From an uncultured Chloroflexia bacterium (GTDB lineage: Bacteria; Chloroflexota; Limnocylindria; Limnocylindrales; CSP1-4), in assembly GCA_963744095.1 (NCBI GenBank), contig CAVUSH010000006.1, positions 389,670-453,669 of the forward strand: 64,000 nucleotides of DNA, read 5' to 3'. Each line of letters opens with the position of its first letter. Position 1 is the stretch's first letter. This document shows positions 14,105 to 63,607 of the stretch, in pieces. The notes under the pieces were generated by a model. The model searched no databases, had not been told where the DNA came from, and saw nothing but the letters and a program-made list of their open reading frames with translations. The translations under genes were made by a program, and so were the position numbers.

Positions 14105-14559
14105 GACATCGCCGTCGCCGCGGCCGGTGCCGCCTCGAGCCGCTCCTTGAGGCGGACCAGCTCGGCGGCCTCACCCGCCCGGATCTCGCCCGCGAACAGT
14201 GGCTCGACGAGACGCATCAGCCCGGTCAGGCCCAGGGATCCTGCCCAGACCACCCTGGTGCTCTCCGGCCCGGTGGCTTCGAGGTCCATCGCCACCTCGC
14301 CCCGCATCGGGCCCGAGAGGACGCGGTAGGCGAGCCGACGTCCGGGCTCCGCCTCGGCGACTTCGAACTCGATCGTCTGGCGCCTCGGCCCGATCTTGAC
14401 GTTCTCATGCGCTCGGGCGCCGACCTCAGTCGACCGTCCCTGGACGATGCGTGCGTCGATGACGCTCATCCAGGTCGGATGGCGGTCGATGTCCGCGGCG
14501 TACTCCCAGACCTCCATTGCCGATCGATCAATCGTCTGCTCGCTCCGGAACGGGATCAC
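14101..14559 (-). CDS. SRPBCC family protein
   Basis: GTG 14559 overlaps the upstream stop (GTGA). VIPFRSEQTIDRSAMEVWEYAADIDRHPTWMSVI... Confidence 0.7.
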   Translation of the reverse strand: MIPFRSEQTIDRSAMEVWEYAADIDRHPTWMSVIDARIVQGRSTEVGARAHENVKIGPRRQTIEFEVAEAEPGRRLAYRVLSGPMRGEVAMDLEATGPESTRVVWAGSLGLTGLMRLVEPLFAGEIRAGEAAELVRLKERLEAAPAAATAMS

Positions 14560-24293: not shown

Positions 24294-27045
24294 TCAGGCG
24301 GAGGGTCGGCCGGCCCGGGTGCGCGAGAGCAGGCCGAGCTCGGCGGCACGGCGGACGGCTGCCCTCCGGCTGTTCACGCCGAGCTTCGCGTAGATGTTCC
24401 TCGTGTGCGTCCGCACGGTGCTCAAGGACACCACCAGCTCGCGCGCGATGTCCGGGCCATCGAGCTCGCTGCCCAGGAGGCGCAGGACCTCGAGCTCCCG
24501 CTCGCTGAGCGGTTCGATCAGCGGCTGTTCGACAAGCGTTCGTCCCTCGGCGGGCGCGACAGCGGCAAGGAGTCGGCGCACATAGCGCGAGGCGTTCCGC
24601 TGCTTCGCCGCCAGCTTCAGCAGCGCCGCCATGGGCGGTCCTTCGTCGACGACGACGCGGACGTAGCCCTCCGGCTCGGCCATCGCCAGCGCACGATGCA
24701 GCGACGCAAGCGCACCCGGCACATCGTCGTGGGCGCGACGGGCGAGCGTCAGCAGGACCAGGATCTCGATGACGCTCCCGTTTCGACCACCTTCCTCCGC
24801 AGCTGCCAGCAGGCGCTCCAGGAGCTCCGTTGCCTCTCTGGTGGCGCGTGCGGAACGGTCGTGCGCTCCCTCGGCCAGAAGCAACCTGGCCAGCGTGGCG
24901 TGCTCGAGCTCGTGGACGTAGCTGAGCTCGTCGGCAGCGGAGAGACCGCGCTCGCGCGCCCACTCGGAAGCCTCCGCCAGCCTCCCCTGGGCGATCCACA
25001 CGCGTGCCTTCAGGGCAGCGACGGGGCGCACGTCCGGGGAGAAGTCGCCGACGTAGAGACGCTCGGCCTCGGTGAGCAGCTCGAGCGCCCCGTCCAGGTC
25101 GCCCTGTGCCTGCCGGATCGCGGCCAGGGCGACGCGCGACCGATAGCGGTTCTGGGGCAGGCCGTTCTCCTCGCCCAGCGCCCCGGCCTCCGACAGGTGG
25201 CGCCTGGCGCCCTCGAGGTCGTCCCGCTCGCGGAGGATGGTGCTGATCCCGACGTGCATGTCCGCCGCGCCCCGCAGCACATGGCCACCCTGCCCGGTGG
25301 CGAGCGCCAATCCCCGCTCGAAGACGCGCAGCGCCTCGCCCAGGCGACCCTGGGCGAGCCGGATGTCGGCCAGGGCGAGCGCGCAGCCGATGACGTCCGA
25401 GAGGTGACCGGCCTTCTCCAGGCTCGCCATCGCAGCCGCGTACCAACGGGACGCTTCCTCGAGATCCCCGCTCGTCCAGGAGGCGAGCGCCAGGAGCCCG
25501 GCTGCGCCTCCACGGGCAAGGTGCTCGTCCTCGCCGACGAGGTCGAGCGCCCGCCTGGCATGGGCCACGGTGCCGGCCGCATCGCCGAGGATGAGGGCCT
25601 GGCCGGCGCGGTGCACGGCGACCGAGCCCGGCAATCGGCGGAACGCCGCCTCGTCGACGACGACCATGGAGCCCGCACCTTCGCCCGGGCCAACCACGGT
25701 CCCGTCCATCGCGCCGAGCCACCGCTCGGCGTCCCGCAGCCGCTCCTCGACCCCCTCGACCTCGCCCCTGACGAGGAGCGACCCGGCGTACGCGTTGCTC
25801 AGCACGGGCCGGACCCGGAGCAGCTCGTCGGGGAGCGCCTCGAGCCACCGGCGCAGCGTGGCCTCCCGTCGATGCTGGGTCGTCGCCGGGATCGCCAGCT
25901 CCACGAGGTCCGCCGCCCGCTCGAAGTCCTCGGCGGCGATCGCATGGTCGATGGCCTCCGACCGTTCGCCGTTCTCCTCGTACCAGTCGCTCGCCCGCCC
26001 GTGAAGCACCTGGGCGCGGCCGGGCTGCTCGTCCAGGAGGCGCGCTCGCAGCACGTCGGCAAAGAGCTGGTGGTAGCGATACCACCGGCGGCGGTCGTCG
26101 AGCGGGACCAGGAACAGGTTTCCCCGATCGAGCGCCTCCAGCATGGCGTTGCCGCCATCCTCGCCGGTGACGGCATCGCACAGCGGGCCGCTCAGGCGGT
26201 CCAGGACGGAGGTCTGCAGCAGGAAGCTCCGGACGTGATCGGGTTGACGGTGCAGGACCTCTTCGACCAGGTAGTCGACGATGTAGCGGTCGTCCCCGGC
26301 GAAGCCGGCGATGAAGCCCGCGACGTCCTCGCGCCCCTGGATCGAGAGCGCGGCCAGCTGGAGGGCGGCGATCCAGCCCTCGGTGCGCGCCTCCAGGGCG
26401 GCGACATCGCTCGCCGTCAGGGCCAGCCCCATCGCCTCGTTGAGGTACGCGGCGGCCTCGTCCGGGGTGAAGCGCAGGTCGGCGGCGCGGATCTCGACGA
26501 GCTCGCCCCGCGCCCGCAGGCGGGCCAGCGGCAGCGCCGGATCGGCGCGGGTGGTGATCACCAGGTGCAGCCGCGGGGGGAGGTGCTCCAGCAGGAACGC
26601 CATCCCCTCGTGGATGTCGGGCACGTCGACCTCGTGGTAGTCGTCGAGCACCAGCACGACGTCCTGCGGCACCGCGCTGAGCTCGTTGAGCAGCGTCGCA
26701 AGGACCGTCTCGATCGGCGACTGGCCCGAGTCCAGGAGTGGGAGCCCACTCGCGCCGACCCCGGGTGCCACCGACTGCAGCGCGGTGATCAGGTACGTCC
26801 AGAACAACACGGCCTGGTTGTCACCGGGGTCGAGCGAAAGCCACGCCGTGGACCGTTCACCGGCCGGCGCGGCCGCCAGCCACTCGGCCAGCAGCGTCGT
26901 CTTGCCGAAGCCGGCCGGCGCGGAGATGAGCGTCAGCTTCGACTCGGCGCCGCGGTCCGAGGCGTTCGCTCAGTCTCGGACGTGCGACCAGGCCGCGTCG
27001 CAGCCTGGGGACGAAGAGCTTGGTCTCGAGCAGCGGGCTGGCCAT
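24294..27045 (-). CDS. MalT/LuxR-type STAND transcriptional regulator #1 (P-loop NTPase + helical repeats + LuxR HTH), frame broken at ~26957
   Basis: MASPLLETKLFVPRLRRGLVARPRLSERL is followed, after skipping one G, by DRGAESKLTLISAPAGFGKTTLLAEWL, which runs into the 838-aa ORF 24294-26810. The C-terminal LSERELEVLRLLGSELDGPDIARELVVSLSTVRTHTRNIYAKLGV is a LuxR/GerE HTH. Confidence 0.85.
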
Positions 27046-34962: not shown

Positions 34963-35037
34963 TGGAGCCGACACTCGGATTTGAACCGAGGACCTGCTGT
35001 TTACGAAACAGCTGCTCTACCGCTGAGCTATGTCGGC
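34963..35037 (-). tRNA. tRNA-Thr (anticodon CGT), CCA encoded
   Basis: The reverse complement GCCGACA-TA-GCTC-AGCGGTA-GAGC-A-GCTGT-TTCGTAA-ACAGC-AGGTC-CTCGG-TTCAAAT-CCGAG-TGTCGGC-T-CCA folds as a 75-nt cloverleaf. The anticodon loop is TT-CGT-AA. Confidence 0.9.
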
Positions 35038-39895: not shown

Positions 39896-42556
39896 ATGGG
39901 TGCTCCGGAGGAGCCGGTCGGCGTTCGCGCTCCTGGCGTCGTCGCACGAAGAGCGCTGTATGCGCGCCTGTCTGCCGGAGCTTCCGCTGGCGTAACGCTC
40001 GTCTCGGCGCCGCCCGGCAGCGGGAAGACCGTGCTGCTTCGCTCGTGGATCGATGAAGCGGGGCTCCGCGCCCGAACAGCCTGGGTGCTGGTCGAGCGCC
40101 ACGAACGCGACGCCCAGCGCTTCTGGCTGTCGGTCGTCGAGCAGCTGCGCTCCGCGGTCGGCGAGGACGGCGTCGTGCAGAAGGTCGCGCCGACCCCGGA
40201 GTTCGACGGCGACGGGCTCGTGCGGCGCCTCATCTCGGACCTCGAGGCGCTCGATGAGCCCGTCGTGCTCGTGATCGACGATCTGCACGAGCTGGTCTCG
40301 CCGGATGCGCAGGCGCAGCTGGAGCTGCTGATTGCGCGACGGCCGCGGTTGCTGTACGTGGTCCTTGCCACACGCCATGACCCCTCCCTGGGACTCCATC
40401 GCCTGCGCCTCGCCGGCGAGCTGACCGAGCTCCGAGCCGCCGACCTCCGGCTCTCGGCGGACGAGGCGCGGCAGCTGCTCGATGCCTCTGCGGTCGAGCT
40501 GTCCGCCGAGGCCGCCGCCGTCCTCCTGGCGCGGACCGAGGGGTGGGCCGCGGGCCTGCGGCTCGCCACGATGTCGCTCGCCGGTCACCCTGACCCCGAG
40601 CGGTTCGTCGCCGAGTTCGCCGGCAGCGAGCGGACCGTGGCGGACTACCTGCTCGCCGAGGTCCTCGAGCGCCAGCCCGAAGGGGTCAGGCAGCTCCTGC
40701 TCCGCACCTCGATCCTCGAGCGGGTCTGCGGCCCGCTCGCGGACCGCCTCACCGGCGCGAGCGGCTCGGAGCGGACGCTCCTCGAGCTGGAGGACTCGAA
40801 CGCGTTCGTCGTCGCGGTCGACCGTGAGCGCTCGTGGTTCCGCTACCACCCGCTGTTCGCGGATCTCCTGCTCCTGGAGCTTCGGCGCAGCGAACCCGAT
40901 GCCATCAGGGATCTGCACCTGGCCGCCGCCGACTGGCTCGCCGAGCATGGGCACGCCGTCGATGCGATCCGCCACGCCCAGGCCGCCGGTGACTGGGAGC
41001 GCGCAGGGCGCGTGCTCGCCGACCATGGTCTCAGCCTCTCCCTCAACGGACACGTCGCGACCATCGGCGCCCTGCTCGCAGCCTTCCCCGCCGATGCGCT
41101 GTCGAATCCGGAGCTGGCCGCGCTCCTCGCCTTCGTCGAGCTGACGCAGCACTCCCTCGGGACGGCGGCCGCGTACATCGCGCTGGCCGAACGACGTGCT
41201 TCGGAGGTCCTCGCCGAACGGCAGCGTCAATTCGCGGTCGTGCTCGCGGTCGTCAGGCTGGAGCTCGCCCGCCGGCGCGGTGATCTCGAGTCGGCGCTCC
41301 GCGAGGTGGGTCCGCTGCTCGAACCCGTCGAGGCGGACTCGATGACCGAGCTGACGCTGGGCAACGACGCGCGGGCGCTCGCGTTGATGAACCTCGGGAT
41401 CGTCGAGCTGTGGTCGTTCAGGCTTGACGACGCCGAGCGACACCTGGAGCAGGGCCTGGCGCTCGCGCGGCTGATCGACAGGCCCTACGTCCAGATCGGC
41501 TGTCTCGCGCATCTCGGGCTCGACGCCGCCCGACACTCGCTCGCGCAGGCACGGCAACGATGCGAGGAGGCGATCGCGATCGCGGAGGCACACGGCTGGG
41601 CGACCGACCCGATCGCCTGCACCGCGTTGGCGATGATGGCCTTGGCCGAGGCGGCGCAGGGCCGATTCGAGGAGGGAAGCCGCTGGCTCGACCGAGCCGA
41701 GCACTCGATCCGGGCAGAGCCTGACCCCGCCACGGCCCTGTTCGTGCACTTCGTGCGCGGCGAGCTGCACGTCGGCGAGGGCCGGTTCGGAGAGGCGCTC
41801 GGCGAATTCCGTGCCGCTGCGCGGCTCCAGGACGTGCTGGCCACCTCGCACGCGCTGACCGGCCCGGCCAGGGTATCGATCGCCCAGACACAGCTGCGGA
41901 TGGGCGACCTGACCGGTGCACGGGCCACGGTCGCCAGCCTGACCGAGCGGGACCACGAGTTCGGTGAGGCGCGGACGGCCCTCGCCGCGATTCGACTCGC
42001 GGAGGGCGATTCCACGGCGGCCGTCGCAGCGCTCGCGCCGGTGCTCGACGGGACGTTGCCGGTCGTCCGCGCCGGGACCGTGGTCCAGGCGCTGCTGCTT
42101 GATGCGGTCGCACGCGACCAGCTCGGCGACCGCGTGACGGCGGAGCGCGACATCGAGCGCGGTCTGGACATCGCCGAACCCGACTCGCTCGTCTTCCCGT
42201 TGGTCGTGGTGCCGGCGCGCGACCTCCTCGAGCGGCATCCCCGGCACCGGACGGCGCACGCCGCCCTGCTGGCCGACCTCCTCAGCGTCCTCGGCGGGTC
42301 GTCGCTCCCGCCCCGTGGCCGCGAGCCCGTGACGCCGTCCGAGCCGCTCAGTGAGAGCGAGCTCCGAGTGCTCCGCTTCCTGCCGAGCAACCTTTCCGCG
42401 GGCGAGATCGCCGGTCAGCTCTACGTGTCGACGAGCACCGTCAAGACCCACATGCGCCACATCTACGAGAAGCTGGACGCGCATCGGCGCACCGAGGCTG
42501 TGGATCGCGCGCGGGACCTGGGGCTGCTCGGACCATCGGCGCGATCGGGTCGCTAG
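39896..42556 (+). CDS. MalT/LuxR-type STAND transcriptional regulator #3 (intact, 886 aa)
   Basis: Walker A VTLVSAPPGSGKTVLLRSW. LVIDDLHEL, TEGWAAGLRLA and long helical repeats follow. The C-terminal LSESELRVLRFLPSNLSAGEIAGQLYVSTSTVKTHMRHIYEKLDA is a LuxR HTH. Confidence 0.9.
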   Translation: MGAPEEPVGVRAPGVVARRALYARLSAGASAGVTLVSAPPGSGKTVLLRSWIDEAGLRARTAWVLVERHERDAQRFWLSVVEQLRSAVGEDGVVQKVAPTPEFDGDGLVRRLISDLEALDEPVVLVIDDLHELVSPDAQAQLELLIARRPRLLYVVLATRHDPSLGLHRLRLAGELTELRAADLRLSADEARQLLDASAVELSAEAAAVLLARTEGWAAGLRLATMSLAGHPDPERFVAEFAGSERTVADYLLAEVLERQPEGVRQLLLRTSILERVCGPLADRLTGASGSERTLLELEDSNAFVVAVDRERSWFRYHPLFADLLLLELRRSEPDAIRDLHLAAADWLAEHGHAVDAIRHAQAAGDWERAGRVLADHGLSLSLNGHVATIGALLAAFPADALSNPELAALLAFVELTQHSLGTAAAYIALAERRASEVLAERQRQFAVVLAVVRLELARRRGDLESALREVGPLLEPVEADSMTELTLGNDARALALMNLGIVELWSFRLDDAERHLEQGLALARLIDRPYVQIGCLAHLGLDAARHSLAQARQRCEEAIAIAEAHGWATDPIACTALAMMALAEAAQGRFEEGSRWLDRAEHSIRAEPDPATALFVHFVRGELHVGEGRFGEALGEFRAAARLQDVLATSHALTGPARVSIAQTQLRMGDLTGARATVASLTERDHEFGEARTALAAIRLAEGDSTAAVAALAPVLDGTLPVVRAGTVVQALLLDAVARDQLGDRVTAERDIERGLDIAEPDSLVFPLVVVPARDLLERHPRHRTAHAALLADLLSVLGGSSLPPRGREPVTPSEPLSESELRVLRFLPSNLSAGEIAGQLYVSTSTVKTHMRHIYEKLDAHRRTEAVDRARDLGLLGPSARSGR

Positions 42557-53100: not shown

Positions 53101-54849
53101 TCAGGCGATCCCACCCTCGGCGGCGAGCTGCTCGGCGGCCTCCGCCGGGAGCCAGAACCAGCGCAGGTGCTCGAAGTCCGGACCAACGGGGAGGGGTCCC
53201 GCCACGCCTTCCGGCGTGGGCGGGGGCGTGGCGAGAAGGGCCCGCGCCTCCTCCAGGTAGGCGCCGAGGCGCGACTCCGGCTCGCGGTGGCGATGGGCCG
53301 CGTACCGCATGGCCCCCTTCTCGTAGCGGACGCCCAGGAGCGAGAGCGGCGGTTCCACGGTGCCGCCGCGATGGAGCCAGAGCCCGGTGAGCGGGTCGAA
53401 GCGGTACTGCGGCAGGAGGCGCCAGCCCTCGCGGGCGACCAGGTCGACCGACTCGAGCACGAAATCGAAGACGGCCTCGCTGATGAAGTAGTTGAAGTTG
53501 ACCCGGACCCAGCCCGGCTTGATCCCCTCGCAGCCGCGGGCGATCTCGCGCTCGAACTCGCGGGAGCGCTCCAGGTCGATCCCGAGGAGCCGGTGGCCGT
53601 ACGGCCCGGCGCACGAGCAGCCGCCGCGGGCCTGGATGCCGAAGAGGTCGTTGAGGAGCGCGACGACGTAGTTGTGGTGGAGGTAGCGGCCCTCGTGGCG
53701 GACGACGAACGAGACGATCGACAGCCGGGGGAGGGCCGGGTTGCCCAGGATCTCCAGGGCCGGGTTCGCCCGCCAGCGCTCGATCGCCCGGCGGATGAAG
53801 TCCTCCTCGCGCTCCCGGATCGCGGCCACGCCGACGGCTTCCTTGAGCTGGAAGACGAGGCCGGCCCGGATCAATTCGACGATCGCCGGCGTGCCGCCCT
53901 CCTCCCGGTGCTCCACGTCGTCGAGGTAGACGTGCTCGGTGGGGTTGACGTAGGCGACGGTGCCGCCGCCGGGCACCGTGGGGACGCGATTGCGGAAGAG
54001 GTCGCGGCGGGCGACGAGGATGCCCGGCGTGCCGGGCCCGCCGATGAGCTTGTGGGGCGAGATGAAGATCGCGTCCTTGGTGTCGAGGGCGGCGTCGGCC
54101 GGGTCGCCGTCGGACGGGGAGCCGTCGGGCGCCGGCCGCCGCGGCGCCATCTCGACCTCGACGTACGGCGCGCTGGCGGCGAAGTCCCAGAACGAGAGCG
54201 CGCCGTGGCGGTGCAGCAGGACCGAGATCGCCCGCGTGTCGGACAGGATGCCGGTGACGTTGGAGGCCGCCGAGAAGCTGCCGATCCGCAGCGGCCGGCC
54301 GGCGTGGCGGACCAGCTCGGCCTCCAGGCGGGCGAGGTCGATTCGTCCGTCGGCGTCCTCCGGGATCGTGATGACGTCGGCGATCGACTCGCGCCAGGGG
54401 AGCTCGTTGCTGTGATGCTCGTAGGGGCCGATGAAGACGACCGGGCGCTCCGCGGCGGGGATCCGGGCGGCCAGGCCGTACCGCTCGTCCAGCTCGGCCG
54501 GGAGCCGCAGCCCCAGGACGTGGACGAGGCGGTCGATGGCGGCGGTCGAGCCGGACCCGACGAAGATGACGACGTGCTCGTCGGTCGCCCCGACGGCGTC
54601 CTTCACGATCTGGCGCGCCTCGGCCCGGAAGCGGGTCGTCTGGAGCCCGGTGCCCGACGATTCGGTGTGGGTGTTCGCGTACAGGGGAAGCACGGCGTCG
54701 CGGAGGTAGTCCTCGATGAAGGTGAGGCTCCGGCCGGACGCGGTGTAGTCCGCGTACGTCACCCGGCGCACGCCGAACGGGCCGGCCACGGCCTCGTCGT
54801 CGCCGACGACGGAGCGGCGGATGGTCTCGATGAGGGGGGTCGCGTCCAT
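53101..54849 (-). CDS. aminotransferase class V-fold PLP-dependent enzyme (cysteine desulfurase/selenocysteine lyase-like, long form)
   Basis: 582-aa ORF. ...VTYADYTASGRSL...YANTHTESSGTG...VIFVGSGSTAAID...FSAASNVTGIL...FISPHKLIGGPGTPGILV. Confidence 0.8.
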   Translation of the reverse strand: MDATPLIETIRRSVVGDDEAVAGPFGVRRVTYADYTASGRSLTFIEDYLRDAVLPLYANTHTESSGTGLQTTRFRAEARQIVKDAVGATDEHVVIFVGSGSTAAIDRLVHVLGLRLPAELDERYGLAARIPAAERPVVFIGPYEHHSNELPWRESIADVITIPEDADGRIDLARLEAELVRHAGRPLRIGSFSAASNVTGILSDTRAISVLLHRHGALSFWDFAASAPYVEVEMAPRRPAPDGSPSDGDPADAALDTKDAIFISPHKLIGGPGTPGILVARRDLFRNRVPTVPGGGTVAYVNPTEHVYLDDVEHREEGGTPAIVELIRAGLVFQLKEAVGVAAIREREEDFIRRAIERWRANPALEILGNPALPRLSIVSFVVRHEGRYLHHNYVVALLNDLFGIQARGGCSCAGPYGHRLLGIDLERSREFEREIARGCEGIKPGWVRVNFNYFISEAVFDFVLESVDLVAREGWRLLPQYRFDPLTGLWLHRGGTVEPPLSLLGVRYEKGAMRYAAHRHREPESRLGAYLEEARALLATPPPTPEGVAGPLPVGPDFEHLRWFWLPAEAAEQLAAEGGIA

Positions 54850-54969
54850 CCGCGGATCGTAGCCCCCGCCGAGCGAGCGCTGGCGGCGACACTGCGGCCG
54901 CCATCGCGGCGCCGGGCGTGCCCACTGCGAGCCGCTCGCGAGCTCGGCGCATCCGCCGCGGAGCGTGGG

Positions 54970-56234
54970 TCAGGCGAGCCCGCGGCCCTTCTCGAGGACG
55001 ACCTGGAGGTCCTGGGTCACGCCCGTCGCGAAGCTCGCCTCGCTGATCGCCAGGTAGTAGTCCCACATCCGGATGAACTCCTCGTCGAAGCCCATCGCCC
55101 GGACCGTGTCGAGCCGTTCGAGGAAGCGCGCCCGCCAGGCCCGGAGCGTCCGGACGTAGTGCGGGGCGATGTCCTCGACGTCCCGGATGAGCAGGCGCGT
55201 TCGATGGGTCGACCGTTCAATGACCGCCAGGGACGGCAGGAGGCCGCCCGGGAAGATGTAGGTCTGGATCCAGTTGGCGCGACGGCGCTGCGGCTCGTAG
55301 GCGACGTCCGGGAAAGTGATCGTCTGGAGGCTCATCCGGCCACCCGGACGGAGCGCCCGGTCGCACGCTTCGAAGAAGGCGGAGTAGAACTCCGCCCCCA
55401 CGGCCTCCAGCATCTCGATCGAGACGATCGCGTCGTACGTGCCCCGGATGTCGCGGTAGTCGCGCAGCTCGACGCTGACGCGCTCTGCGAGGCCCGCGTC
55501 ACGGACCCGCTCGGTCGCCAGCGCATGCTGGGCCTGCGAGATCGTGATCGTGGTCACGCGGCAGCCCAGCTCGCCGGCGGCGTAGAGGGCGAAGCCGCCC
55601 CAGCCGGTGCCGATCTCCAGGACGTGCTCGCCGCCGCGCAGGCCCGCCCGTTCGGCGATGACCGCGTACTTGGTGCGCTGGGCATCGGCCAGCGACTGCC
55701 CGGGCGTGGCGAAGACGGCGCTCGAATACGTCATCGACTCGTCCAGGAAGAGCCGGTAGAAGTCGTTGCCCAGGTCGTAGTGGGCGGCGATGTTGCGCCG
55801 GCTCTGCCCGACCGTGTTCCGGCGAGCGCGGTGGGCCATCGTCCGCTGGATCCGCACGGGGAGGCGCCACCACCCGCCCGAAAGGGCGAGCGCGTCGCGG
55901 TTGAGCGCCGCCACCCGGAACAGGGCCGGCAGGTCGGGGCTCGACCAGAGGCCGTCCATGTAGGCCTCGCCCGCACCGATGTCGCCGGCCAGCAGGAGGC
56001 GGGCCACGGCCGTCGTGTCGTGGATGTGCATCTGCGCCGCCTGGTCGGAGGCGCGTCGCCGAAGACCCGGCGCGAGCCGTCGGGCAGGACGATCGTCAGG
56101 CGTCCGACGTGGATCCGCCGCGCGGCGCTGAGCATGACCCGCCGGGCGACGCGCTCGACGAAGCGATCGACCAGGCGATCGGCGCGCGAGCCCCGGCGCG
56201 CTCCGGACCGCCTCGCCGCGGCGCCTTCGCTCAT
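54970..56234 (-). CDS. cyclopropane-fatty-acyl-phospholipid synthase (Cfa)-family SAM-dependent methyltransferase, frame broken at ~56050 (behaves as a 1-nt deletion)
   Basis: MSEGAAARR...RIHVGRLTIVLPDGSRRVFGDA is followed, after the shift, by SDQAAQMHIHDTTAVARLLLAGDIGAGEAYMDGLW...HYDLGNDFYRLFLD...VLEIGTGWGGFALYAA... Confidence 0.85.
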
Positions 56235-56971
56235 CGCGCCATCTGGCTGCGCCGGAAGAGCTCCGTGCCCCGCGTCCAGAGGCGCAGGGCGTGCCACAGG
56301 ATCAAGCCCATCGTCCGGTGGGAGAGCAGCGGGTGGCGCAGCAGCATCCGGGCCAGCGTCCGATCGGTCAGCCGCTTTCGGCGCAGGACCAGGCTCGCGC
56401 TGAGCACCTGCTCCTGGCCCTGCCGCTCGTCGATGGCGATGCGCACGCCATCGTGATCGTCGCGGACGTGCACCGTGTACCGGCCCTCCATCCCGATGAA
56501 CGGTGACACGAAGAACGCCTTCTCCATCGAGCCCACGAAGCGATCCCCCTCCCTCTCGGGGTGGAGCGTGTACAGGTGCCGCTCGCCGAAGGTGTTGTGG
56601 ACCTCCACGATCACGACCCGGAGGATGCCACGCGCGTCGCGGCAGAGGAAGAAGCTCGCCGGGTTGAAGACGTACCCGAGGACCCGCAGGCTCGTGATCA
56701 GCGTCACGCGCCAACCCTCGGGATCCAGGCCCTCCGAACGAAGGTGCGCCCGGACGTCGACGTCGATGTCGCGGGACGGGACCACCAGGTGGTCCTCGTC
56801 CCGGAACGTCACGACGTTCGCCCGGTTGCGGCTCACCAGGCGCAGCCGGCCGATGACGTCGTCGAGCTCGGCGAGGTCCAGGGCGAAGTAGAAGACGTCA
56901 TGCTCGAGCTCGTAGACTCGAGGGCGCGCCCGGCGATGGCGGACCTTGCCCTCGAGGAGATGCGACCTCAT
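56231..56971 (-). CDS. DUF1365 domain-containing protein
   Basis: [33 protein letters not shown]...[13 protein letters not shown]...[15 protein letters not shown] overlaps sit at both ends. Confidence 0.85.
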
Positions 56972-58297
56972 GCAGCGCGCTCCGCGTCGCCCGCGTCGGC
57001 GTCGGCGTAGGCCGTGTCACCGTCGGCTTCGGCGTCCGCCCGCCCGGCCGCCATCAGCATCTCGGCGACCTCGAAGCCCGAGCGGCAGCCGTCCTCGTGG
57101 AAACCGTACCCGAGGTGTGCGCCGGCGTACCAGGTCCGCAGGTGGCCCTGCAGGTCGCGGATCCCCACCTGGGCGTCGAGCGTCCTGAACGTGTACATCG
57201 GGTGGCTGAAGGCGCGCTCGACGATCACGTGCTCCGGGCTGATCGCCTCGCCGGGGTTGAGCGAGACGCAGTACTGGACTGGGCCGGGGAGCGACTGCAG
57301 GCGGTTCATGTGGTACGTCATCGTGAGGGCGTCGCCGGGGAGCCGGCAGTCCGCGGTACGCACGTTCCACGAGGCCCGGGCGTGCGGGCTGGCCGGCAGG
57401 ATGCTCTCGTCCGTGTGCAGGACGACATGGTTCATCGAGTACTCGAAGCCGCCCAGCACGTCGCGCTCGCCCGCGTCCGCGTCGGCCAGGAGGCGGAGGG
57501 TGTCGTCGGCATGGGTCGCCATGACGACGGCGTCGAATCGCTCCGAGCGGCCGCCGGCTGTCCGGACGGTGACCCCGCGGGAATCGCGGAGGACACCGGC
57601 CACCGGATCGCCGGTCCGCACCGAGCCCGCGGGCAGGGCCTCGACGATCCGGGCCACGTATTCCCGCGACCCGCCGCGGATCACGCGCCACTGCGGCGCG
57701 TTGCCGTAGCCGATCAGCCCATGGTTGTCGAGGAAGTGGAGGAGGTAGTCGACGGGGAACTCCAGGGCCCGATCCGCCCCGGTCGACCAGACGGCCGAGG
57801 TGATCGGGACCAGGAAGTGCTCCCGGACGCCGCGCCCGTAGCGGTGCTCGTCCATCCAGCCGCCGAGGGTCGCCCGGGTGCGCTCCGGCGCGTCCAGCGT
57901 CTGTCGGGCGTCGCGGTAGAAGCCGGGCGATGTCGGCGAGCATCCGCAGGTGGGTCGGCCGGCCGAGCAGCGAGGCATTCGGGAAGATGCCGCGGGCGCC
58001 GCGCGAGCTGAAGCTGATCCGGCAGGCGTCGCAGGCCGAGCCGAGCGACATGTCGCTCGGTTGCGTGGCGACCCCGAGCTCGGCAAGGAGCCCGACGAAG
58101 CGCGGGTAGGTGCGCTCGTTGTAGACGATGAACCCGGTGTCGACCGGTACCGGTCCGGCGTCCGTCTCCACGGTCACGGTCTTCACGTGGCCGCCGGCGA
58201 CGGGATCCTGCTCGAAGAGGGTGACCCGGTGGTCCCGGCGCAGCGCGTAGGCGGCGGTGAGCCCGCTGACGCCCGCTCCGACGATCGCGATCTTCAT
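56968..58297 (-). CDS. NAD(P)/FAD-dependent oxidoreductase (amine-oxidase/desaturase-like), frame broken at ~57922
   Basis: [41 protein letters not shown]...[11 protein letters not shown] is followed, after a +1 shift, by [29 protein letters not shown]...[13 protein letters not shown]...[13 protein letters not shown]. Confidence 0.85.
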
Positions 58298-58755
58298 CGG
58301 TCCGTCCCTCGGCGCGTCGCGGCGCGCTCGTCGAGCGCGCGCTGCATGCCGTCGCGCGCCTGGCGGGCGACTTTCGCGAAGGCGCCGCCGGCGAAGGGAG
58401 CCACCAACCGCTTCACGCCGCGGAGCCGGATGTCCGCCGTGTAGTCGATCCGGGTGCCCTCCGGCGTCGCCTCGAACCGGATGTCGTCGACGGCCGAGAG
58501 ACCGGAGCCCTCGCCGGCCAGCACGACGCGGCGCAGCGGCTCGAGGGCCGTGACGCGGTACTCCATGCTCGCGACGCCGCCGCCCATCCGCACGCCGAGG
58601 CGATAGCGCGCCCCGATGGCGACGGGCCCCGGGTCGAGCCGCTCAGAGGTGGCGACGCCGGGGTCCCAGTCCTTCGTGTTCGCGAAATCGGCGACGAAGG
58701 CGAACGCCTCGTCGAGGGGCAGGGGAGTCTCGATGCGCTCGTTCAGCGTGGTCAT
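58294..58755 (-). CDS. SRPBCC family protein (first gene of the lipid-modification operon)
   Basis: [34 protein letters not shown]... The stop overlaps the oxidoreductase start (ATGA). Confidence 0.8.
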
Positions 58756-58791
58756 GTTGCATCCTGTACAGAGTTCGTATAAGGTATGCGA

Positions 58792-58834
58792 AGCCTACGG
58801 CCACGCAGGCGGTCGTGTCAAGTGTTCGTACAAT
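58792..58834. promoter_or_regulatory. back-to-back promoters of the SRPBCC operon (minus) and the heliorhodopsin operon (plus)
   Basis: Minus strand: TTGACA (58821-58816), an 18-nt spacer and TAGGCT (58797-58792). Plus strand: TACAAT at 58829-58834, 28 nt before the heliorhodopsin ATG. The region is locally AT-rich. Confidence 0.5.
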
Positions 58835-58862
58835 GTTGTGAAGAGCAGAGGGAGAGCGGGAG

Positions 58863-59750
58863 ATGACGCACGTCGAGGCCACTGGAGCCGACCCGGCGCA
58901 GCTGGGGGCAGCCGCCCGCTCAGCCACGCCCGCGAACCACGCCGCGCCGGCGGCGATCGATCTGGCGGCGATCGATCCCGCGCGTGCGCGCGGACTTCAC
59001 CGCTGGAACGTGGTGCTCGCGGGTCTCCACGCGGTGCAGGGCCTGGCGATCCTGGCAATCTCGTTCGCGAAGAGCCCGGTCGTCTCCGCGCCGGTGGTGA
59101 GCAGCTATCTCACCTTCGACACCGCGACGAGCACCCTCGTCCCCGCCCAGCGCGCGCTCTTCGACCTCCCGATCGGGCCCGCCGTCGCGCTCTTCTTCTT
59201 CCTCAGTGCGATCGCCCACTTCGCCGTCGCGTTCCCGGCGCGCCGCTGGTACGAACGCAGCCTCGCGCGCGGCCAGAACCCGGCCCGCTGGATCGAGTAC
59301 GCCCTCTCGTCGAGCGTGATGATCGTCGTCATCGCGACGCTGTCGGGGATCCAGGAGGTCGGGACGCTCGTCGCGATCTTCGGCATCAACGCGGCGATGA
59401 ACCTCTTCGGCTGGAGCATGGAGGCCGCGAACGAGGGCCGGACGCGCGTCCAGTGGCTCCACTACGTCTTCGGGTGCATCGCCGGTGCCGTCCCGTGGAT
59501 CGTCATCACGATCGCGCTCTGGACCGCCGCGACCGCGCCCGGCGCCGCGCCCATCCCCGGCTTCGTGATCGCGATCTTCGTCTCGCTCTTCATCAGCTTC
59601 AACGTCTTCGCGATCAACATGGTCCTGCAGTACCGGAAGACGGGTCGCTGGGCCGACTACCTCTACGGCGAGCGCGCGTACATGCTCTTCAGCCTCGTGG
59701 CAAAGACCCTCCTCGCCTGGCAGGTCTTCGCCGGTACCCTGCGGCCGTAG
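58863..59750 (+). CDS. heliorhodopsin
   Basis: 295-aa 7-TM ORF. NPARWIEYALSSSVMIVVIA, FGINAAMNLFGW, FGCIAGAVPW and GERAYMLFSLVAKTLLAWQVFAGTLRP closely parallel the remembered HeR 48C12 segments RWVEYSLSSSVMIVLIA, FGCIAGIVPW and GERAYIVLSLVAKSALAWQIFSGTLIP. Both the counter-ion Glu and the Schiff-base Lys are present. Confidence 0.9.
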   Translation: MTHVEATGADPAQLGAAARSATPANHAAPAAIDLAAIDPARARGLHRWNVVLAGLHAVQGLAILAISFAKSPVVSAPVVSSYLTFDTATSTLVPAQRALFDLPIGPAVALFFFLSAIAHFAVAFPARRWYERSLARGQNPARWIEYALSSSVMIVVIATLSGIQEVGTLVAIFGINAAMNLFGWSMEAANEGRTRVQWLHYVFGCIAGAVPWIVITIALWTAATAPGAAPIPGFVIAIFVSLFISFNVFAINMVLQYRKTGRWADYLYGERAYMLFSLVAKTLLAWQVFAGTLRP

Positions 59751-59751
59751 C

Positions 59752-60747
59752 GTGGATCTTCGACCGCTGATCGATGCCGGCCTCGAGATCTCGGTCGTCG
59801 GCAGCTTCACCCGGATCGGGCCCGCGGTCCGGCGGCGGCTCTTCGGCTGGTCGCCAGCGCCCGCTGGCGCGCTGGCCGGCCGGACCGTGCTCGTCACCGG
59901 GCCGACGTCCGGGCTCGGCCGGGCCGCGACCCACGTGCTCGCCGGCCTCGGGGCGCGGGTGGTCCTCGTGGGACGCAGCCAGGAGCGGCTGGCACGCCTC
60001 CGCGACGAGCTGATCCGGGTCCACGGCGAGGATCGCTTTCCCGTGGTCGTCGCCGACATGGGCTCGCTCGCCTCGGTGCGGGCCGCGGTCGCCCGTGTTC
60101 TCGCGACGGAGCCGCGCCTCGACGTCCTGGTCGACAACGCCGGGGCGATCTACCCGGAGCGGATCGAGGGGCCGGACGGGATCGAAGCGACCCTGGCCGT
60201 CCTCGTGGTCGGCCCCTTCGCGCTGGTCGCCGGGCTGCAGCCGCTCCTGGGCCGGACGGCCGGCTCGCGCGTGATCGCCGTGACGTCGGGTGGCATGTAC
60301 ACGCAGCGCCTCGACCTCGACGACCTGCAGTGCCGCGTTGGCGGCTTCTCCGGCGCCCGCGCCTACGCCCGGGCGAAGCGGGCCCAGGTCGCGCTCGTGC
60401 GGGAGTGGGCGCGCCGCCTCGCCGGCATGTGCGTTCCGGCGTCCGGCGTTGCGTTCACGGCGATGCACCCGGGGTGGGCTGACACACCGGGCCTCGCGGA
60501 GTCCCTGCCGGGCTTCCACCGGCTGATGCGCCCCCTCCTCCGCACGGCCGCGGAAGGCGCCGACACGATCGCCTGGCTCGCCACCCATCCCGACCCCGCG
60601 TCGACGAGCGGTCGGCTCTACCTGGATCGCCGGCCGCGCCCGTTCGACCGCGCCCCGGCGACGCGGCTCTCGGCGCACGATCGCCGGCGGCTCTGGGACG
60701 AGGTGGTGGAGCTGAGCGGGGAGCCGGATCCGACACCCGCCGGCTGA
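59752..60747 (+). CDS. SDR-family oxidoreductase (RDH/DHRS12-like subgroup)
   Basis: The GTG start lies 1 nt after the heliorhodopsin stop. GRTVLVTGPTSGLGRA...LVDNAGAI...VTSGGMY...YARAKRAQVAL...MHPGWADTPGL. Confidence 0.85.
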   Translation: MDLRPLIDAGLEISVVGSFTRIGPAVRRRLFGWSPAPAGALAGRTVLVTGPTSGLGRAATHVLAGLGARVVLVGRSQERLARLRDELIRVHGEDRFPVVVADMGSLASVRAAVARVLATEPRLDVLVDNAGAIYPERIEGPDGIEATLAVLVVGPFALVAGLQPLLGRTAGSRVIAVTSGGMYTQRLDLDDLQCRVGGFSGARAYARAKRAQVALVREWARRLAGMCVPASGVAFTAMHPGWADTPGLAESLPGFHRLMRPLLRTAAEGADTIAWLATHPDPASTSGRLYLDRRPRPFDRAPATRLSAHDRRRLWDEVVELSGEPDPTPAG

Positions 60748-60825
60748 CGCGACGCTGGTCGTTCGCCACGCCTGGCGGTCGAGCGCGTTTCACCCGGCTC
60801 GATCAGCGCCCGTGAGGCCGCTGCC

Positions 60826-61030
60826 GGGGCGAGTGCCCCTGTCGCGGATCAGCCGCGCCGACTCACCGCCGCGGCGATGGCCGCCGCGGCCGGGGCGAGT
60901 GCCCCCGTCGCGGATCAGCCCGCGCCGACTCACCGCCGCGGCGATGGCCGCCGCGGCCGGGGCGAGTGCCCCCGTCGCGGATCAGCCCGCGCCGACTCAC
61001 CGCCGCGGCGATGGCCGCCGCGGCCGGGGC
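60826..61030. repeat. tandem repeat, 3 copies of a 66-67-bp unit, abutting the litR-like stop codon
   Basis: GGGGC unit starts fall at 60826, 60892, 60959 and 61026. The unit is GGGGCGAGTGCCCC(C)GTCGCGGATCAGCC(C)GCGCCGACTCACCGCCGCGGCGATGGCCGCCGCGGCC. Confidence 0.9.
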
Positions 61031-61978
61031 TCAGCGGCGCCGGCTCACGACCTCTGCGACAGCCGCCGCCGCGGCCACCACGTGGTCGGGCAGCACCAGA
61101 ATCCTGCCGCCCGGGGCAAGCTCCGGCCCGGCGGCGGCGCCCCCGACGGCGATGATCGGGACCGCCTGCGCCTGGAGCGCCGCGACCACGGCAGCCGCGG
61201 CCTCGCGGTCGGCCACAACGACCACCCCGATGACCGCGGCGCGCGCGCGCGACTTCCTGAAGACGTCGACCCAGCCCTCGACCGTCACGTCGGGCCCGAG
61301 GTAGAGCACGCCGACGCCGCGACGGCGGAGCGCGGCGGCGAAGGCCAGGGCTCCGAGCTCGTGGCGCGCACCGGGCGGCAGCCCGACGACGACGGACGGG
61401 CGGGTCGGGATCCCGGCGGCCTGGTAGATCGCGGCGAGGCGCCGACCGGCGGCGGCACTCGCGGCGTGCTCGGCCGCCACGCTGAGCGTGCCCGCCGCCC
61501 ACGCGTCGCCGAGGGCCGCGGCTGCGGGAAGGAGAATGTCGTCGACGACCGCCTCGAACGATCCCGCGGCGAGGATGGCATCGAGGGCCGCCTCGGTGTC
61601 GGCGGGCGACGCGGATTCCGCGGCGGAGACGAACCGGTCGATCAGCCGGGCCCGATGGACGGCCGCCCCGGACGCCCCGGCGGGTTCGGCAGGCTGCGGG
61701 CCCGCGAGCGCGCCCGCGCGTCGGTCCGGAGGCGGCGCGACCACCCGGTCCTCGACGGCCACCTCGCCCGCCGAGATCGCGCGCGCTGCTTCCGACGCCG
61801 TCCAGCCAGATTCGACGAGCGCCCGCATCGTGAGCAGGACCCCGATCGTCGCGTCGTCGTAGAGCCGGTATCCGGCGGCCGTGCGGGTCGGCTTGACCAC
61901 GCCGTAGCGCCGCTCCCAGGCCCGGATGAGGGGAGCGCCAACGCCTGAGCGTGTCGAGGCTTCCTTGATGGTGTACAT
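61031..61978 (-). CDS. MerR-family regulator with C-terminal cobalamin-binding domain (CarH/LitR-type light-responsive regulator)
   Basis: The N-terminal MerR HTH is MYTIKEASTRSGVGAPLIRAWERRYGVVKPTRTAAGYRLY. The helical-bundle motif W-x9-EH (DAWAAGTLSVAAEHA) is present. The Rossmann B12 motif RHELG (xHxxG) is followed by GVGVLYLGPDV. Confidence 0.8.
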   Translation of the reverse strand: MYTIKEASTRSGVGAPLIRAWERRYGVVKPTRTAAGYRLYDDATIGVLLTMRALVESGWTASEAARAISAGEVAVEDRVVAPPPDRRAGALAGPQPAEPAGASGAAVHRARLIDRFVSAAESASPADTEAALDAILAAGSFEAVVDDILLPAAAALGDAWAAGTLSVAAEHAASAAAGRRLAAIYQAAGIPTRPSVVVGLPPGARHELGALAFAAALRRRGVGVLYLGPDVTVEGWVDVFRKSRARAAVIGVVVVADREAAAAVVAALQAQAVPIIAVGGAAAGPELAPGGRILVLPDHVVAAAAAVAEVVSRRR

Positions 61979-62066
61979 GGTATGTCCAACCCTAGCACGA
62001 GATCAACCCTCCGCACAACGGGGAGGCTGGTCATCGCGTGACACCAGGGATGCGCCGCCGCCGAAT

Positions 62067-62212
62067 GCCCGGCACGTCACCATGCCGGCTGGCTGCCCGG
62101 CACGTCACCATGCCGGCCGGCTGGCTGCCCGGCACGTCACCATGCCGGCCTGGCTGCCCGGCACGTCACCATGCCGGCTGGCTGCCCGGCACGTCACCAT
62201 GCCGGCCGGCTG
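62067..62212. repeat. tandem repeat, 5 copies of a 28-32-bp unit between the XRE-like gene and litR
   Basis: The core GCCCGGCACGTCACCATGCCGG starts at 62067, 62095, 62127, 62156 and 62184. Copy 5 encodes the last codons and the TGA of the gene at 62194-62991. Confidence 0.9.
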
Positions 62213-62991
62213 CCGGCGGCGGAACGGGGTCCCGTCACGCTCGGCGGCCGTCGCCAGGCGAACACGCGCGTCGTGGCCACGTCGCACCAGACGAGGCCGG
62301 TACCCCGGGGCGCCGGAGCCCCCGAGACGAGGGCGCGCACCCATCCGGCCGACGAGCCCGGGAAGCGCGCAGCGAACACCTCCGGGTAGCGGGCGACGAG
62401 TGCCCGGTTCCTGGCCGTCGCCCGCACGAGCCAGACCAGGCCGACGTCACCTGCCGTGTCGCCCCAGCGAGCCGTCGCGAGGGCCTCGGCCTCCGCCCGC
62501 TTCCTGTCGCTGGATCGCGCTGAAGCGCCGACGTCGCCGATCGTGTTCCAGCATTCGACGAGAAGAAGCCGCCGCCTGGCAGGATCCTCCAGCCCGACGT
62601 CGGATGATCGCCACGGCTCACTCGGCCTCGTTGCGAGCTCGAAGCTCAGCCCGTACCCGGCCACCCGGCCAAGCCGAAGCACGAGCTCCTGCATTCCCAG
62701 GTGAGGCGCGTCGCTGGTCTCACCGGCGACGTTCCGCTGGAGCACTACCACGAGTGGCCGGTCCACGGCCAGTCCGATCCGCTGCCACGCGTCCAGCGTC
62801 AACCCGGCGCCGTGACCGCGTTCGGCGCGGCTGATCGACTGGCGGGCAAGCCCCACACGCGCGCCGAGCTGCTGCTGCGTGAGGCGCTTCGCAACGCGCC
62901 CCGCCCTGACCTCGCCCCCGAGACGGGCGCATTGCTCCCTGGCGCGGCGCTCGGCTTCGACCGAGAGGCTGGTGCGGATCCGGGTCGGCAT
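62194..62991 (-). CDS. XRE-family HTH protein with uncharacterised ~170-aa C-terminal domain
   Basis: Starts at MPTRIRTSL. The HTH is RVAKRLTQQQLGARVGLARQSISRAERG. The C-domain ...FELATRPSEPWRSSDVGLEDPARRRLLLVECWNTIGDVGA... could not be assigned to a family. Confidence 0.65.
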   Translation of the reverse strand: MPTRIRTSLSVEAERRAREQCARLGGEVRAGRVAKRLTQQQLGARVGLARQSISRAERGHGAGLTLDAWQRIGLAVDRPLVVVLQRNVAGETSDAPHLGMQELVLRLGRVAGYGLSFELATRPSEPWRSSDVGLEDPARRRLLLVECWNTIGDVGASARSSDRKRAEAEALATARWGDTAGDVGLVWLVRATARNRALVARYPEVFAARFPGSSAGWVRALVSGAPAPRGTGLVWCDVATTRVFAWRRPPSVTGPRSAAGSRPAW

Positions 62992-63254
62992 GACCGCTCC
63001 ATGATCATCTCCGGCACTTGCCTGCGCCGTATCCGGGCTGGCGGTGACGGCGTCCTCCCCCGGGCCTGCCCGCGCCGGCACGCACGGCACGCGGGGCACG
63101 ATTGGACGTTCACATGCTCGTGGAGCGGGCACGGGGCGGCACAAGCCCCTGGCCTCGGAGGCAGGGGGCGGCGCAAGCCACTGGCCGTGGAGCCAGGGGG
63201 CGCCGATACCCTGGATCTGCTCATGGAGCGGTCACGGCGAAACACAGCCGGCGC

Positions 63255-63412
63255 GGGCCCCCAGCCGCCGGGCCGCGCGGGCCGCCAGCCGCCGGGCCGC
63301 GCGGGCCGCCCACCGCCGCGGGCCGCCAGCCGCCGTGGGCCGCCAGCCGCGGGCTGCCAGCCGCCGCCGGCCGCCAGCCGCCAGCCCGCGGGCCGCCAGC
63401 CCCCGGGCCGCG
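63255..63412. repeat. degenerate GC-rich short tandem repeats (GGGCCGCCAGCCGCC-like, ~8 units)
   Basis: Read directly from the sequence. The array is intergenic, between the XRE-like gene and the ABC ATPase gene. Confidence 0.6.
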
Positions 63413-63607
63413 CGCGATCCGCGGGAGGGTCGGAGGGCAGGGTCGATCAGGCCCATCGGTCCCATGTGCATCGGGCCGACCCGCCCTGACGACCCCGGGG
63501 GCGCGGGCGGTACGCTGGCCTCGGCCGCCCCGCCCTGACGCCGTCCCGCTCGCGGCGCTACGCTCGCCGGCAGCCACGCCGCGCGCCCGCACCGGAGCCG
63601 ACCACGC

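Follow-up and report, generated by a model that had tools for sequence, protein, structure and literature searches.

The 64-kb stretch of DNA analysed here, referred to throughout as the window, belongs to a Limnocylindrales-type soil member of the Chloroflexota and has a G+C content of 71%. Between positions 54970 and 61978 it carries an island of seven genes, in which a heliorhodopsin (HeR) gene and a short-chain dehydrogenase/reductase (SDR) gene stand between a lipid-modification operon and the gene of a LitR/CarH-type regulator with a B12-binding domain. With a probability that we set at about 0.6, this island would be a class I LitR/CarH regulon: on illumination, litR itself, the HeR-SDR pair and a furan-fatty-acid-type operon would be derepressed from overlapping divergent promoters, with HeR as a later-recruited and co-regulated member. 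The combination of LitR, SDR and Ufa-type lipid genes is a known light-inducible module, and the link with HeR appears undescribed in the papers searched.

Domain assignments were obtained with profile hidden Markov models (HMMs) from Pfam and NCBIfam. Pfam backs every one of the seven genes, and the domain calls made in an earlier reading of this DNA, hereafter the first-pass annotation, all stand. On the minus strand, the lipid operon opens with an SRPBCC/START-like lipid-binding protein (58294-58755; Polyketide_cyc2, E=5.6e-19), a gene that the first-pass annotation had not listed. It continues with a flavin adenine dinucleotide (FAD) amine-oxidase/phytoene-desaturase-like oxidoreductase of UfaD type (56968-58297; NAD_binding_8 and Amino_oxidase, both halves), whose frame is broken, an intact DUF1365 protein of UfaO type (56231-56971; Pfam DUF1365, E=2.3e-71 over the full profile) and a frameshifted S-adenosylmethionine methyltransferase of the Cfa/CMAS family, UfaM/RSP1089-like (54970-56234; Pfam CMAS, E=5.8e-86). 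The methyltransferase scores under the cut-offs of the NCBIfam cyclopropane fatty acid synthase models and is placed at the level of the CMAS family only. On the plus strand, HeR (58863-59750, 295 amino acids; Pfam E=1.3e-94; NCBIfam HeR model 317 bits for a cut-off of 100) precedes a classical SDR oxidoreductase (59752-60747; adh_short, E=1.5e-22). The class I LitR/CarH-type regulator, with its MerR_1, B12-binding_2 and B12-binding domains, occupies 61031-61978 on the minus strand. The lipid operon is thus divergent from HeR-SDR across a gap of 107 bp and litR is convergent with the SDR gene, an arrangement that agrees, coordinates included, with the one first proposed.

The leftward operon is tightly packed, with 4-nt ATGA overlaps at the SRPBCC/UfaD, UfaD/UfaO and UfaO/Cfa junctions, and the adjacent, overlapping UfaO and UfaD genes form the pairing expected of a furan-fatty-acid cluster. 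Its FAD-oxidase/DUF1365/Cfa order is that of RSP1091-1087 in Rhodobacter sphaeroides, a part of the sigmaE-ChrR singlet-oxygen regulon that encodes UfaD, UfaO, the Cfa-like RSP1089, RSP1088 and the SDR RSP1087 (PMC7380195), which bears out the earlier remark that homologues of these genes are tied to singlet-oxygen stress. In that organism, methylation by the vaccenate 11-methylase UfaM is followed by the conversion of the methylated fatty acid into a furan fatty acid by RSP1091 (UfaD) and RSP1090 (UfaO), the latter being the O2-dependent former of the furan ring (PMC7380195). By analogy, the leftward operon is best named the counterpart of a furan-fatty-acid-type membrane cluster that would protect against singlet oxygen.

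The HeR protein covers positions 1-242 of the 242 of its Pfam profile (316.5 bits for a cut-off of 26.7) and aligns end to end with TaHeR (6IS6, E=3.9e-63). The retinal Schiff-base lysine K281 (SLVAKT) and the counter-ion glutamate E145 (RWIEYA) are present, His56 and His119 likewise align with TaHeR, and a variable N-terminal extension of 44 amino acids is found in addition. Its closest relatives (68-90% identity) come from metagenome-assembled genomes labelled Candidatus Limnocylindrales or Chloroflexota; neither for HeR nor for the SRPBCC protein of the window was an identical sequence found on record. A single nucleotide separates the HeR stop from the start of the SDR gene, whose product carries the TGxxxGxG, NAG and YxxxK motifs and falls in a PRK06197/protochlorophyllide-reductase/retinol-dehydrogenase-like branch (NCBIfam PRK06197, E=5e-36, under its cut-off). 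An orthology of this SDR with the RSP1087-type cluster SDRs of Proteobacteria was considered and dropped, the similarity being generic: identity is 24% with the SDR of the Salinivibrio cluster (L082), and the match to that of Azospirillum is confined to a 35-residue cofactor-binding stretch.

The recurrence of this island was assessed in a scan of 185,579 species genomes, which gave 80 HeR loci at species level, all from relatives within the Limnocylindrales, against which the window proteins were compared by tblastn, the neighbourhood being defined as the 10 kb around HeR. UfaO, UfaD, Cfa, SRPBCC and SDR are all found near HeR in 27 of the 80 loci, with SRPBCC keeping its first position in the lipid operon throughout these 27, and LitR is found in 25. 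The window layout is reproduced exactly in 22 loci, the lipid operon and SDR accompany HeR in other orders in five, LitR occurs without the lipid operon in two, and about 50 have neither the lipid operon nor LitR. At least five layouts were seen in all, and the other orders are varied: SDR, a DUF4397 gene on the minus strand and HeR in L039 and L042; SDR with HeR immediately behind it in L080; HeR-LitR on the strand opposite that of the lipid operon and SDR in L046; and an SDR about 2.9 kb away from HeR in L056. In L076 (7437-10768), LitR is divergent from a 488-residue fusion of SRPBCC with an NAD(P)-binding, NmrA/epimerase-like domain; the stop of the fusion gene overlaps the start of HeR, the intergenic region contains operator repeats, and Ufa genes are absent within 10 kb.

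The flanks also differ from locus to locus (Nramp, MFS, DEAD helicase or aminotransferase genes), and in a neighbour-joining tree of HeR the loci with the association fall into a large paraphyletic group and two or more other branches. With several gene orders and unrelated flanks, the recurrence is more than frozen synteny. Within the 80 loci sampled, the association of HeR with the lipid cluster is confined to one order of Chloroflexota. Recurrence, raised by the first-pass annotation as a check of its proposal, is found in 27 loci and in several orders, and is missing from about 50, with a single taxonomic order concerned. The stored rows of the table of a 2021 neighbour survey by Chazan et al. 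(876 actinobacterial and 232 Chloroflexi HeRs) contain none for DUF1365, CMAS, Polyketide_cyc2 or the SDR described here; these rows were pre-filtered, and their silence is weak evidence of absence outside this clade.

Metagenome contigs scanned with the DUF1365 protein of the window yielded 25 loci, which document an older arrangement of the module. The close ones (UfaO identity of at least 71%) resemble the window. In seven distant ones (L090, L091, L094, L097, L098, L105 and L106), an SDR orthologous to that of the window (58-74% identity) adjoins SRPBCC-UfaD-UfaO-Cfa, mostly in divergent orientation, and it is directly divergent from the lipid operon, with HeR absent, in L090, L091, L094, L097, L098 and L105. 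In four of the seven, 7-10 kb of flanking sequence contain neither HeR nor LitR. Since the SDR stands beside the lipid operon in contigs free of HeR, we take it, together with SRPBCC, as part of the lipid module on comparative grounds, and HeR as a later addition, found ahead of SDR in the window type and behind it in L080. The first-pass annotation had attached the SDR to HeR as "its" SDR, an attribution that these orthologues overturn. L098 (6777-16023) shows an extended version of the HeR-less module: SDR and SRPBCC are divergent from UfaD-UfaO-Cfa, an NmrA+DUF2867 fusion and a 264-residue protein that has no Pfam match, and a palindromic TGTACAAAGTTTGTACA at 14547 precedes a gene for an SRPBCC+NAD(P) fusion. 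No LitR gene was detected in this locus. Both types of fusion are also found beside HeR, NmrA-DUF2867 in L080 and SRPBCC-NAD(P) in L076.

The 107-bp gap between the divergent units contains the predicted control region. A putative HeR-SDR promoter (58757-58783, plus strand), conserved across 22 loci, combines a -35 element TTGCAT (58757-58762) with a -10 element TATAAG (58778-58783), and a CarH-type candidate operator, site 1 (TGTACAgagttCGTATA, 58765-58781, plus strand), lies inside it, over the spacer and the -10. Facing it, a putative SRPBCC-ufa promoter (58792-58832, minus strand) is formed by a -35 TTGACA (reverse complement of 58816-58821), an 18-nt spacer and a -10 TAGGCT (reverse complement of 58792-58797). 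The second candidate operator, site 2 (TGTCAAgtgttCGTACA, 58816-58832), contains this leftward -35 and lies 51 bp from site 1. Both are conserved: in the intergenic alignment of the 22 loci, block 1, next to the SRPBCC start, reads TTGCAT-N16-TATAAT with TGTAnA-N5-TGTAnA in the spacer and -10, and block 2 reads GTCAAG-tGT-TGTAc across loci, where TGTCAA is the reverse complement of a perfect -35 TTGACA.

The litR promoter region (61972-62035, minus strand) presents an operator-like repeat over the start codon (61972-61988, reverse complement TGGACATACCATGTACA). The position of a -10-like TAGGGT, about 10 nt 5' of the ATG, points to a nearly leaderless transcript. Aligned over 27 loci, the litR upstream regions share a conserved TGTAGAacacTTGTCCA, over a -35-like element, followed by N~17-TAgCGT-N10-ATGTACA; the upstream -35/operator is well conserved in relatives and weak in the window, and matches to the operator motif occur at -42 and +2 of litR in many loci.

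These repeats are far more frequent than chance would provide. A strict 17-nt operator pattern, for which 0 matches are expected in 64 kb, occurs nowhere in the window but between HeR and SRPBCC and at the start of litR, the latter copy with one mismatch. With a relaxed pattern, 70 matches were obtained in 1.37 Mb of loci for about 3 expected (an estimate from base composition), almost all of them upstream of HeR or at litR. A three-repeat score of at least 9 out of 12 is reached by 21 of the 22 window-type loci and three of the five rearranged ones, and by 2% of random background windows. It is also reached by four of the five loci of a group in which HeR stands beside sugar-transport genes: L049, L055, L066 and L071 carry three tandem 11-bp TGTnnA repeats with a TTGACA -35, about 70-190 nt upstream of HeR, perfect (12) in L049, L055 and L071 and scoring 10 of 12 in L066. 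The neighbours of HeR in these four are a sugar ABC transporter, GH3 and aldo/keto reductase genes, with neither the lipid module nor LitR nearby. HeR is thus a recurrent putative target of the TGTnnA operator even away from the lipid genes, though not everywhere, a universal LitR operator upstream of HeR having been rejected on finding no motif in about 45 of the 80 loci.

Published CarH operators consist of three or four tandem 11-bp nnnnTnnACAn repeats over the -35 or the -10, often with TTGACA inside a repeat (PMC9304148). TGTnnA being the reverse complement of TnnACA, the phase, sequence and placement of the repeats described here all agree with them. The idea put forward at first, that LitR would derepress both operons in light, gains strong in-silico support from these predicted operators, which cover promoter elements in 58756-58862 and accompany litR.

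The regulator itself combines a MerR helix-turn-helix, a four-helix bundle and a Rossmann B12 domain, and both of its domains align with Thermus LitR/CarH (3WHP and 5C8D, E=2e-35). In TtCarH, Trp131, Glu141 and His142 make up the Wx9EH motif, His177 is the lower axial ligand and His132 the upper ligand of the light state (PMC10442372). The Wx9EH motif is kept, GDAWAAGTLSVAAEH aligning with GEAWHRGEIGVAEEH of Thermus, and so is the lower axial histidine, with PPGARHELG aligning to PPGERHEIG.

On this basis, a mechanism can be proposed for the LitR regulon. In the dark, adenosylcobalamin-bound LitR would form oligomers on the tandem 11-bp TGTnnA (= TnnACA) repeats, covering the spacer and -10 of the rightward HeR-SDR promoter at site 1 and the -35 of the leftward SRPBCC-ufaD-ufaO-cfa promoter at site 2, while the similar repeats that flank the promoter of litR would bring its own gene under the same control. 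Light below about 600 nm would photolyse the B12 cofactor and release LitR, and all three units would then be transcribed. HeR, inserted between the shared promoter and SDR, would by its position become a light-induced member of the LitR regulon.

Several observations weigh against this reading. Neither the module nor the operator is found in about 50 of the 80 related HeR loci. A scan of 54800-62300 for sigma-70 promoters and terminators found none under its strict rules, so that the promoter calls rest on cross-species conservation, and the HeR promoter of the window is off-consensus, with a 15-nt spacer and a TATAAG -10. The half-site over ATG-TAC-ACC at the litR start may be conserved for coding reasons. 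The operator was not found in L090, L091, L094 and L097, which have the module and no HeR, nor in L056 and L080, which have both, and LitR control is accordingly not universal. On the protein side, the window LitR has an alanine at the position of TtCarH His132 (W-A instead of W-H); this histidine forms the bis-His cobalamin adduct and is not part of the family signature, and its replacement means that the photochemistry following Co-C cleavage may differ. The regulator also scores 137.7 bits on the NCBI CarH equivalog NF052513 (E=4e-40), below the cut-off of 400, and is, as judged from its architecture, a member of the class I LitR/CarH family and not a strict equivalog. Finally, the in-operon Cfa-like RSP1089 of Rhodobacter is dispensable for furan fatty acids and the SDR RSP1087 is not needed either (PMC7380195).

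The state of the lipid operon bears directly on the part played by HeR. Compared with the intact locus L002, where the UfaD orthologue has 431 amino acids, the UfaD frame of the window is broken by a 1-bp insertion at about 57922 and that of the methylase by a 1-bp deletion at about 56055, in its N-terminal part, which leaves 60 N-terminal codons (from the ATG at 56234 to about 56055) and 353 C-terminal codons in the open reading frame 54970-56031. The two frame-disrupted lipid genes reported at first are thereby confirmed, in a cluster whose enzymes are intact in most relatives. Both indels may be assembly errors.

A census of frameshifts was conducted with intact reference proteins in 28 island loci, the window included, many of which come from long-read bins, where assembly errors may contribute to indels. 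HeR is in a single frame in all 28. UfaD, Cfa or UfaO is split or strongly diverged in eight (the window, L001, L008, L013, L014, L022, L036 and L046), the operon being frameshifted in L001 as well and heavily degraded in L008 and L022; LitR is split in two loci and SDR in one. The imbalance between HeR and the lipid genes exceeds what gene length would lead one to expect. In L070 (900-1500), a short-read MEGAHIT contig with a HeR 89% identical to that of the window, the SRPBCC-UfaD-UfaO-Cfa operon has been lost as a whole: what is left is HeR with the two operator blocks and about 60 nt from the 5' end of SRPBCC, joined to an aminotransferase gene that is the one following Cfa in the window. 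From its two frameshifts, the lipid operon of the window is probably inactive, in agreement with the erosion seen in close relatives. Within the subclade of the window, these losses suggest that the lipid operon is dispensable and that a putatively light-regulated HeR is retained, which argues against an obligatory partnership between HeR and the enzymes.

Such a partnership is the likeliest of the alternatives, though we consider it unlikely. HeR would act on the lipid module as a partner or regulator gated by light, for example by binding SDR, SRPBCC or UfaO at the membrane, so that fatty acids are modified only during illumination; this role would have its analogues in the pairs of HeR with glutamine synthetase and with photolyase, and is compatible with LitR control. 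It would account for the variety of module parts that HeR adjoins, SDR in the window type and L080, the SRPBCC-NAD(P) fusion in L076 and the NmrA-DUF2867 fusion in L080, for the presence of HeR with the module in L056 and L080, where neither a LitR gene nor the operator is found, and for the association in separate branches of the HeR tree. HeR has been reported to regulate operon partners (PMC9529153, PMC9769723) and a hypothesis connecting HeR with lipid remodelling has been published (bioRxiv 10.1101/2021.02.16.431466). The frameshifted (window, L001), heavily degraded (L008, L022) and deleted (L070) lipid operons next to a HeR that is always intact speak against it, as do the HeRs that carry a perfect three-repeat operator alone beside sugar-transport genes (L049, L055, L071) and the location of most related HeRs elsewhere in the genome. 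The proposal of the first-pass annotation that HeR acts on or with the lipid enzymes is weakened likewise, since close relatives retain HeR where the operon has decayed or been deleted.

A more elaborate version, in which the two photoreceptors form a feed-forward circuit, is more doubtful still. LitR would have the proteins made in light, and HeR, as a light-gated control element of a furan-fatty-acid-type pathway of membrane protection, would then activate or scaffold SDR, SRPBCC and the Ufa enzymes at the membrane, or hand over lipids to them through its fenestration. If true, this circuit would give HeR its first physiological role in lipid chemistry.

Another possibility, which we regard as quite improbable, assigns the SDR, and possibly SRPBCC, to the chromophore: as a retinol/retinal oxidoreductase, it would supply or recycle retinal for HeR. 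The PRK06197/protochlorophyllide-reductase-like branch to which the SDR belongs also includes retinol dehydrogenases, the gene starts directly behind the HeR stop, and its product has only 24% identity with the proteobacterial cluster SDRs. The 64-kb window contains no crt or blh genes, and HeR genomes are described as frequently without blh (bioRxiv 10.1101/2021.02.16.431466). Against this role stand the orthologous SDRs (58-74%) that diverge from the lipid operon in contigs free of HeR over 7-10 kb, and the SDRs that are standard in the UfaD/UfaO clusters of HeR-free Proteobacteria; the persistence of the SDR with the lipid operon where HeR is absent makes a function in chromophore supply unlikely. 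As for inherited synteny without shared regulation or function, in which the TGTA-rich intergenic region would be a mere AT-rich promoter region, it could invoke the origin of every recurrence in one Chloroflexota order and the empty strict promoter scan, and is hardly credible in view of the distinct gene orders with unrelated flanks, of the 11-bp-phased motif, which recurs at the litR promoter, itself unlinked, and ahead of HeR in other surroundings, and of the agreement of this motif with the published CarH repeat at a chance expectation near zero.

The surroundings of the island were also inspected. Other light-related genes (crt, blh, photolyase) or a B12 riboswitch were not found in the 64-kb window. 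The gap between the convergent stops of SDR and litR is filled by 3.2 copies of a 67-bp unit at 97% identity (60817-61030). This repeat is absent from all 108 loci compared, and a structured terminator was rejected for it, the fold being no better than that of shuffled sequences (z = -0.98). Just upstream of litR, 62066-62214 holds 5.1 copies of a 28-bp unit, TGCCCGGCACGTCACCATGCCGGCTGGC; in many related loci an MFS transporter gene is divergent from litR at about 100 nt, with a CATGGTGAC-like start region, and the window has the 28-bp repeats in place of this gene. Several more tandem arrays, rich in G+C and with periods of 7-49 bp, lie in 63128-63568, accompanied only by spurious-looking open reading frames.

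At a greater distance, 13228-13680 encodes a second, small MerR-family regulator that has no B12 domain and 14556-15644 a DUF2652 + SRPBCC protein, the TGTnnA operator occurring at neither gene. An amine-oxidase/protoporphyrinogen-oxidase-like flavoprotein, cut by the window edge, lies beside a partial URO-D (uroporphyrinogen decarboxylase) protein at 1-2569, and these genes may be tetrapyrrole-related. The window also encodes two large regulators of the LuxR family that resemble MalT (TPR_MalT + GerE), at 24294-26810 and 39896-42556, one of which includes an AAA ATPase domain, and a tRNA-Thr (CGT) gene lies at 34963-35037.

What heliorhodopsins do has been an unanswered question since 2018, the published leads being two single-organism partner studies and one statistical survey of neighbours. 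The island described here gives this question a defined candidate regulator, operator and pathway, and thus a testable lead. The chemistry of the lipid module (UfaD/UfaO) and its regulation by light or singlet oxygen are known from Proteobacteria. The erosion of the lipid operon with retention of HeR indicates that the link between them may be regulatory and not mechanistic. If the LitR regulon proposed here is real, a rhodopsin would join the carotenoid genes among the targets of CarH/LitR regulons, in a lineage of soil and freshwater that is abundant and uncultured.

Compared with previously studied HeR operons, the island shares the placement of HeR in an operon with a soluble enzyme and the themes of light, oxidative stress and lipids. 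AbHeR is paired with glutamine synthetase (PMC9529153) and TfHeR with a photolyase (PMC9769723), and the survey names DegV, DUF2177 and DUF1295 as statistical HeR neighbours, advances the hypothesis that HeR is related to lipid remodelling and photo-oxidative stress, and notes cobalamin-binding proteins among its neighbours (bioRxiv 10.1101/2021.02.16.431466). The island of the window differs by its identifiable candidate regulator and operator. No paper linking HeR to DUF1365, CarH/LitR, furan or cyclopropane fatty acids was found in the searchable literature. The first-pass annotation, which was aware of no described system of this kind, was right as to HeR within these papers; the LitR/lipid cluster was already known (PMC9758184) and the idea of a connection between HeR and lipids already published in the survey.

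With RSP1091-1087 of Rhodobacter, the island has in common the FAD oxidoreductase/DUF1365/Cfa order, the associated SDR and the tie with photo-oxidative stress. The Rhodobacter cluster is controlled by an extracytoplasmic function (ECF) sigma factor and its anti-sigma factor, where the window has the gene of a B12 photoreceptor. In the window only, SRPBCC heads the operon, HeR is embedded and two genes are frameshifted, and the SDR is divergently transcribed and of another subfamily. UfaD/UfaO cores annotated elsewhere, on plasmids and chromids, have ChrR and a sigma factor as neighbours in Azospirillum, and lipocalin, desaturase and DUF1295 genes in Acinetobacter, and the order in Salinivibrio (L082) is MerR-phrB-NTF2-SDR-FAD-DUF1365-CFA.

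A parallel in regulation is offered by PplR1/PmlR1 of Pseudomonas putida and P. mendocina, whose LitR-family regulon comprises phrB, an SDR, an FAD oxidoreductase and ufaM (PMC9758184). There, ufaM is induced 25-33-fold by light and the operator half-site is TGTACA (PMC9758184). Both systems have a LitR-family MerR gene next to an SDR/FAD-oxidase/Cfa-type cluster, with TGTA(C/T)A half-sites over promoter elements. Light derepression was shown in Pseudomonas and is predicted for the window. The Pseudomonas LitR belongs to class II, functions without B12 and is relieved by a LOV protein, whereas that of the window is of class I and its B12 domain is complete; the half-sites stand N12 apart in the former and form 11-bp tandem repeats in the latter. 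The Pseudomonas cluster includes a photolyase and no rhodopsin, and the window a rhodopsin and no photolyase.

The regulator and its predicted operators come nearest to the CarH systems of Thermus thermophilus, Bacillus megaterium and Myxococcus, with which they share the protein architecture, the Wx9EH motif, the histidine lower ligand and the tandem 11-bp operators (PMC9304148, PMC10442372). The window differs by its two separated two-repeat sites on a bidirectional promoter and by the alanine equivalent to His132, and the repeats at litR make autoregulation likely in the window. CarH targets carotenoid (crt) genes, whereas the predicted targets in the window are a rhodopsin and lipid-modification genes.

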